This document shows, piece after piece, positions 719-1,201 of a DNA stretch of 64,000 nucleotides. How positions within the stretch are numbered: position 1 is the stretch's first letter; every line of letters starts with the position of its first letter. Position numbers and translations under genes: made by a program. A model generated the notes under the pieces. It saw only the letters and a program-made list of their open reading frames with translations, was not told the DNA's origin and did no database searches. The DNA comes from Escherichia coli (GTDB lineage Bacteria > Pseudomonadota > Gammaproteobacteria > Enterobacterales > Enterobacteriaceae): assembly GCF_003334335.1 (NCBI RefSeq), contig NZ_QOWQ01000017.1, one strand, 5' to 3'.

Positions 719-795
719 GGCTACGTAGCTCAGTTGGTTAGAGCACATCACTCATAATGATGGGGTCACAGGTTCGAATCCCGTCGTAGCCACCA
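719..795 (+). tRNA. metT: tRNA-Met (elongator, anticodon CAU)
   Basis: 77-nt cloverleaf ggctacgtagctcagttggttagagc...tcgtagccacca with CAT anticodon and encoded CCA end. Confidence 0.93.
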
Positions 796-804
796 TCTTT
801 TTTT

Positions 805-889
805 GCGGGAGTGGCGAAATTGGTAGACGCACCAGATTTAGGTTCTGGCGCCGCAAGGTGTGCGAGTTCAAGTCTCGCCTCCCGCACCA
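805..889 (+). tRNA. leuW: tRNA-Leu (anticodon UAG)
   Basis: 85-nt class II tRNA gcgggagtggcgaaattggtagacgc... with long variable arm, anticodon loop tttaggt, CCA end. Confidence 0.92.
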
Positions 890-912
890 TTCACCAGAAA
901 GCGTTGTACGGA

Positions 913-987
913 TGGGGTATCGCCAAGCGGTAAGGCACCGGTTTTTGATACCGGCATTCCCTGGTTCGAATCCAGGTACCCCAGCCA
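913..987 (+). tRNA. glnU: tRNA-Gln (anticodon UUG)
   Basis: 75-nt tRNA tggggtatcgccaagcggtaaggc... anticodon loop ttTTGat, CCA end; single copy here (glnU/glnW type). Confidence 0.92.
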
Positions 988-1002
988 TCGAAGAAACAAT
1001 CT

Positions 1003-1079
1003 GGCTACGTAGCTCAGTTGGTTAGAGCACATCACTCATAATGATGGGGTCACAGGTTCGAATCCCGTCGTAGCCACCA
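1003..1079 (+). tRNA. metU: tRNA-Met (elongator, anticodon CAU), second copy
   Basis: Identical 77-nt sequence to the tRNA at 719-795. Confidence 0.93.
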
Positions 1080-1126
1080 AATTCTGAATGTGTCGAATAT
1101 GTTCGGCAAATTCAAAACCAATTTGT

Positions 1127-1201
1127 TGGGGTATCGCCAAGCGGTAAGGCACCGGATTCTGATTCCGGCATTCCGAGGTTCGAATCCTCGTACCCCAGCC
1201 A
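1127..1201 (+). tRNA. glnV: tRNA-Gln (anticodon CUG)
   Basis: 75-nt tRNA with anticodon loop ttCTGat, CCA end; single copy here (glnV/glnX type). Confidence 0.92.

Follow-up and report, generated by a model that had tools for sequence, protein, structure and literature searches.

The array of tRNA genes described here lies close to one end of the window, by which we mean the whole 64-kb stretch of Escherichia coli DNA that was analyzed. ARAGORN, applied to positions 1-3000 and then to the complete sequence, returned exactly five tRNA genes at 719-1201 and no further ones anywhere in the 64-kb window; the Rfam tRNA family RF00005 recovers the same five at 57.6-71.1 bits, above its gathering score of 29. 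All are on the plus strand. The series begins with metT (719-795), encoding an elongator tRNA-Met(CAU) (Met(CAT) in the ARAGORN output, 71.1 bits in Rfam), and leuW (805-889), encoding tRNA-Leu(UAG) (ARAGORN Leu(TAG), 57.6 bits), both identical to their K-12 counterparts. These are followed by a lone gene for tRNA-Gln(UUG) (913-987, ARAGORN Gln(TTG)), which ARAGORN, Rfam and alignment place where K-12 has glnU and glnW, and by metU (1003-1079), encoding a second elongator tRNA-Met(CAU) (Met(CAT)) found by both ARAGORN and Rfam and sharing with metT a 78-nt perfect repeat at a distance of 284 bp. The last member is a lone gene for tRNA-Gln(CUG) (1127-1201, ARAGORN Gln(CTG)), which on the same three lines of evidence takes the place of K-12 glnV, the supE locus, and glnX. 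The first-pass annotation, made by reading the sequence, had placed five tRNAs between a promoter at about 650 and a terminator, and both its coordinates and its gene list proved exact.

The promoter-like site upstream of metT (650-678, plus strand) is of the sigma-70 type, with a -35 element TTGACG, a 17-nt spacer and a -10 element CATAAT; it matches the consensus at 10 of 12 positions and is the same as in K-12 MG1655. On inspection of the sequence, a Rho-independent terminator with a G+C-rich hairpin, an 11-bp stem and a GCTTTT tail follows the last gene at 1207-1232 on the plus strand. Annotation of co-linear records identifies the flanks as the 3' end of asnB, the gene for asparagine synthase B (1-339, plus strand; annotated in ECCTRSRTH03, FDAARGOS_1077 and STK39-3-E, with 100% identity), and ubiF (1355-2530, minus strand). 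In the stretch that separates the operon terminator from the end of ubiF, imperfect palindromic repeats of the REP/BIME type were recognized by eye at 1240-1330 (...cgtcttatcc...gtcggatgcgacg...cgtcttatccgacctacg), a segment in which Rfam at its gathering thresholds reports no match. The location between asnB and ubiF, the single promoter with a distal terminator and the gene order all identify the array as the E. coli metT operon, from which it departs in one respect, namely the possession of seven genes with two for each Gln isoacceptor.

The metT operon of MG1655 indeed has seven tRNA genes and not five, with two copies of each Gln gene, just as the first-pass annotation had stated for K-12. 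In a pairwise alignment, window 640-1300 is identical to MG1655 save for two clean gaps and one SNP. The first gap, of 109 bp, corresponds to one Gln(UUG) gene and the 34-nt glnU-glnW spacer, and the second, of 112 bp, to one Gln(CUG) gene and the 37-nt glnV-glnX spacer. Neither the glnU-glnW spacer TCTTCTTCGAGTAAGCGGTTCACCGCCCGGTTAT nor the glnV-glnX spacer ATTTATTCAAGACGCTTACCTTGTAAGTGCACCCAGT occurs anywhere in the window, even with 3 mismatches allowed. The SNP lies in the metU-glnV spacer at window 1092, with G in the window against A in MG1655, and the same G is present in strain NCTC9100. The surviving Gln(UUG) gene has a glnU-type spacer upstream and a glnW-type spacer downstream, and the surviving Gln(CUG) gene is preceded by a glnV-type spacer and followed by the glnX-type terminator. 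The promoter, the terminator and the five retained genes are intact and the same as in K-12. The alignment shows the window to carry the seven-gene operon less one unit, a gene with its spacer, from each tandem pair of Gln genes, and nothing else. Perfect repeats in the seven-gene locus are 77 nt long in the case of both Gln-UUG and Gln-CUG and 78 nt long in that of Met, and the tandem Gln copies of K-12 are spaced by 109 and 112 bp. Because the gaps match these spacings and the repeats extend over 77 nt, the structure is certainly best described as a repeat-mediated loss of units: the lost length equals the repeat period, the ends fall within perfect direct repeats and one copy is left intact. 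To this extent the recombination between tandem repeats that had been proposed from the sequence alone holds good; as a biological event it does not follow, since collapse of the repeats by an assembler yields the same sequence.

A census of 5,426 complete E. coli genomes places the window in context. Gene-number counts based on at least 80% coverage of long queries were unreliable, with minus-strand six-gene records joined to 100% and plus-strand ones appearing as single pieces at 91%, and were replaced by junction-specific probes. A 104-nt probe for the glnU-glnW junction is found at full length in 5,342 of the 5,426 genomes, leaving 84 without it; the corresponding 107-nt probe for the glnV-glnX junction is found in 5,268, leaving at most 158, a figure that is an upper bound as this spacer is more variable. 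At least 16 genomes (0.3%) have five-gene operons: 13 are single-piece matches to the window and 3 differ only upstream. Among them, ECCTRSRTH03, FDAARGOS_1077, CEA106S and STK39-3-E have five genes with 100% identity to window 300-1700 (1,401 nt), and other five-gene operons sit on diverged backgrounds, with 96.7-99.5% identity. The five-gene metT operon is therefore already known from public genomes with the same structure and is ordinary; with the identical operon in at least 16 complete genomes, it is less unusual than the first-pass annotation had implied. Operons with 8, 6, 4, 3, 2 and 0 genes are present in the database as well. Expansions reciprocal to a unit deletion were likewise found with junction-specific probes, three or more tandem Gln(UUG) genes in 35 genomes and three or more tandem Gln(CUG) genes in 29, and CFSAN027343 and TOP10 proved on checking to have arrays of eight genes; some of these expansions cluster by project too. 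The TOP10 record (NZ_CP080620.1) has three tandem Gln(UUG) genes at 826-1444 of its locus, and its distal Gln(CUG)-type gene bears a CTA anticodon like that of the supE amber suppressor, which ARAGORN labels tRNA-Pyl and PGAP leaves unannotated. The same triplication is seen in XL1-Blue, XL10-Gold, Stbl4, BL21(DE3) and Origami2 under neighbouring accession numbers, and these laboratory-strain triplications may be a loop-count artefact of a single submission.

We compared the window with its relatives over a common alignment of 40,103 sites. NCTC9100 is the nearest relative; it carries seven genes, and only 2 of these sites distinguish it from the window, to which it is 100% identical over window 39500-64000. 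Many genomes match the window at 100% over the 24.7 kb adjoining the operon, and CFS3292 and NCTC9100, the ones checked, have seven genes. By contrast, the four five-gene records with an exactly matching operon show 8-17 differences from the window at the same 40,103 sites, and 10-22 over about 49-50 kb. Across the aligned 40,103 sites, no variant is exclusive to five-gene genomes. Since the closest genome has seven genes and five-gene genomes have no variant of their own, the five-gene state is polyphyletic, having arisen very recently on every background, unless it is not biological at all. Spread of a five-gene allele of single origin between strains by homologous recombination is very improbable. 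It could account for the 100% identical operon region of 1,401 nt shared by the window and the four records with slightly different flanks, but this haplotype is also the commonest one among seven-gene genomes, so the identity is no evidence of transfer, and the five-gene forms on diverged backgrounds speak against it too. That five genes might be ancestral, with the seven-gene form of K-12 a derived duplication, is a formal possibility with nothing further in its favour and carries next to no probability. Both Gln junctions are present in the great majority of E. coli genomes, the nearest relative of the window has seven genes, and the seven-gene order is the same in Salmonella enterica (PMC5400242), which makes seven the ancestral number; contradicted by both census and outgroup, this idea was rejected.

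The comparison with these relatives also brought out several differences outside the operon. ECCTRSRTH03 has an IS1 insertion of its own between lipB and ybeF (35022-35719 of its locus), and CEA106S an IS1-associated deletion of about 7 kb from hscC to part of ybeQ (35511-36962 of its locus); the window has neither. The ybeM gene for deaminated glutathione amidase (window about 37614-38401, minus strand) is one base shorter near 38203 than in FDAARGOS_1077 and STK39-3-E, a state that the window has in common with NCTC9100, ECCTRSRTH03 and CEA106S, in which the gene is annotated as a frameshifted pseudogene. Codon 56 of ybeF (window 35219) encodes Pro in the window and Thr in the five genomes compared, and this seemingly private allele is widespread in public assemblies (1,544 index blocks).

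The remaining question is whether the two units were lost in a cell or in silico. Perfect repeats of 77-78 nt would collapse in any assembly graph whose k does not exceed 77, and an assembler that skipped two short spacer loops would produce a sequence resembling a clean double deletion, in which case the organism would still carry seven genes. We examined this using the seven-gene locus of NCTC9100, whose de Bruijn graph at k=31-77 consists of 10 unitigs with two self-loops, one per spacer; k=31, 55 and 77 all give this topology, and the graph is resolved at k=79 and above. At k=55 the path 0-1-2-3-5-1-6-7-9, which skips both loops, reproduces window 400-1479 at 1080 of 1080 nt. Two further paths also have counterparts in the database, which brings to three the graph paths that match database states. 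The shortest, with one Met and one Gln-CUG gene, matches the MC1061 record over 796 nt with 1 mismatch and no gaps, and the breakpoints of CEA224S, at 717/1422 in the coordinates of the reference, coincide exactly with the end of the unique part of one flanking unitig and the start of that of the other. MC1061 (NZ_CP195014.1) and CEA224S (NZ_CP166080.1) are both "complete" in RefSeq; the former has only Met and Gln(CUG) genes, at 1220-1418 of its locus, and the latter has zero tRNA genes there, at about 1219 of its locus, and no second matching site exists elsewhere in either record. Given that the metT operon contains essential elongator tRNAs and can be deleted only with plasmid support (PMC6265465), these two records represent impossible genotypes. 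Strains GF47, AVS0947, IPCEC48 and HS13-1 are listed with two genes at the locus.

The anomalous records are also concentrated in particular sequencing projects. Three of four genomes of the CEA project are aberrant at this locus, namely CEA106S with five genes, CEA212U with six and CEA224S with none. For this project, hybrid assembly was done in Unicycler 0.5.0 with its default settings (PMC12931692); in the literature a methods description was found for the CEA series only and not for the GF, AVS, IPCEC and STK strain series. Of the 16 five-gene records, 10 bear names that assign them to the Swiss GF, AVS and STK series, the Swiss origin having been checked for one record per series and taken from the names for the others. 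The GF and AVS series, together with IPCEC, contribute two-gene records too. This clustering and the impossible records are features of the public collection (CEA, GF, AVS, IPCEC, MC1061, CEA224S) and not of the source of the window. In the census, loss of both units would be expected in 84 x 158 / 5426 = 2.4 genomes if the two losses were independent, and is observed in at least 16, an excess of about 7-fold (Poisson P about 8e-9, or about 1e-5 with likely clones merged to 12). In light of the excess of double losses, the clustering by project, the impossible records and the exact loop-skipping path, collapse of the repeats during assembly is slightly favoured, and we put the probability that the two units were lost in this way at roughly 0.55, somewhat likelier than their loss in the cell; the apportioning between these two readings is a matter of judgement and not of measurement. 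The seven-gene state of the nearest relative, taken with the lack of any variant exclusive to five-gene genomes, gives no sign of inheritance and has been counted on the same side.

A real double deletion in the living strain, comprising two independent events, each of which took out a single unit between perfect direct repeats of 77 nt, is nonetheless a serious contender, if rather short of even odds, and it would leave a sequence identical to that expected from collapse. Its route would be either RecA-dependent unequal sister-chromatid exchange or RecA-independent replication slippage, for which perfect repeats of this length placed 109 and 112 bp apart are an ideal substrate, and both deletions are exact to the unit. 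Spontaneous metT x metU recombination within this very operon has been seen on a Salmonella plasmid (PMC5400242), and variation by one tRNA gene copy in either direction has been reported as typical between E. coli strains (PMC4539685). The genomes with three tandem copies supply the reciprocal products of such exchange, and these are not products of simple collapse. Single-unit differences also separate members of strain lineages: the seven genes of E. coli W contrast with six in its derivative LY180 and in the related AQ15 and SL112, though AQ15 and SL112 share the coordinates of LY180 and so may not be independent assemblies, and MG1655 has seven against six in MG1655p. Five-gene records come moreover from FDAARGOS_1077 and version 2 of ECCTRSRTH03, for which the assembly methods could not be checked. 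As every anticodon is kept, the five-gene form would be viable, and its rarity and distribution at the tips of the tree fit a mutation-selection balance acting on a mildly harmful loss. Set against this, deletion in the cell calls for two rare independent events, yet double losses exceed the independent expectation; five-gene records cluster in projects that also yielded impossible ones; and NCTC9100, almost identical to the window, has seven genes. A bolder version, in which the double loss is real and recurs in unrelated lineages through selection (16 against 2.4 expected), with the operon serving as a dosage dial, is improbable in our estimate. No better placed are the selective forces that it would invoke, either the balance of the Gln isoacceptors or the shedding of redundant tRNAs in slow-growth niches. 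If it were true, the locus would provide a natural and reversible control of glutamine decoding, ranging from 1 to 3 copies per gene.

The metT operon yields one transcript, which is mainly processed by RNase P once the terminator has been removed (PMC2241853). With five genes, promoter and terminator all intact, the array as read from its sequence should work. If the deletion is real, each transcript would carry Met, Leu, Gln-UUG and Gln-CUG tRNAs at 2:1:1:1 instead of 2:1:2:2, halving the gene dose for both Gln isoacceptors. All Gln tRNA genes of K-12 are located in the metT operon and the window contains a single Gln(CUG) gene; the suggestion of the first-pass annotation that this gene is the only source of its isoacceptor stands within the 64-kb window. 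In a strain with a real deletion it would be the only dedicated reader of CAG, with no back-up copy, and an amber-suppressor mutation of the supE type would remove that reader. In the TOP10 record the CTA allele occupies one of two CUG-type positions and the other is wild type. We found no statement in PMC5400242 on the reading of CAG by tRNA-Gln(UUG), and an eLife 2023 study of translational redundancy contains no Gln data bearing on the fitness effects of Gln tRNA gene deletions. A real deletion would amount to a modest strain-level curiosity. The metT locus is also a small trap for assemblers, as several "complete" E. coli genomes in RefSeq have an impossible version of an essential operon; hence, differences in tRNA copy number within tandem arrays need to be checked against reads before they are given a biological reading.

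Several known systems invite comparison with the window. The metT operon of K-12 MG1655 resembles it in its position between asnB and ubiF, its promoter, terminator and spacers, and the sequences and order of its genes, and differs in having two Gln(UUG) and two Gln(CUG) genes against one of each, the window being 221 bp shorter. The five-gene operons of public RefSeq genomes (ECCTRSRTH03, FDAARGOS_1077, CEA106S, STK39-3-E and at least 12 more) have the same structure as the window. A published case of repeat collapse by an assembler, in which a repeated segment was taken as single-copy and sequence was dropped, parallels what the CEA series and the graph suggest here; in that case the repeats were of kilobase scale and shared between plasmids, whereas here a tandem array on the chromosome has repeats of 77-78 nt, and collapse is what we infer. 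The counterpart in a living cell is the derivation of pUST314 from pUST313 in Salmonella, where metT x metU recombination deleted leuW-glnU-glnW (PMC5400242). There, as in the window, DNA was lost between identical, directly repeated tRNA genes of the metT operon; that event took place under selection on a multicopy plasmid, involved another pair of repeats and cost three genes at once, unlike the two separate one-unit losses between adjacent tandem copies that distinguish the window.
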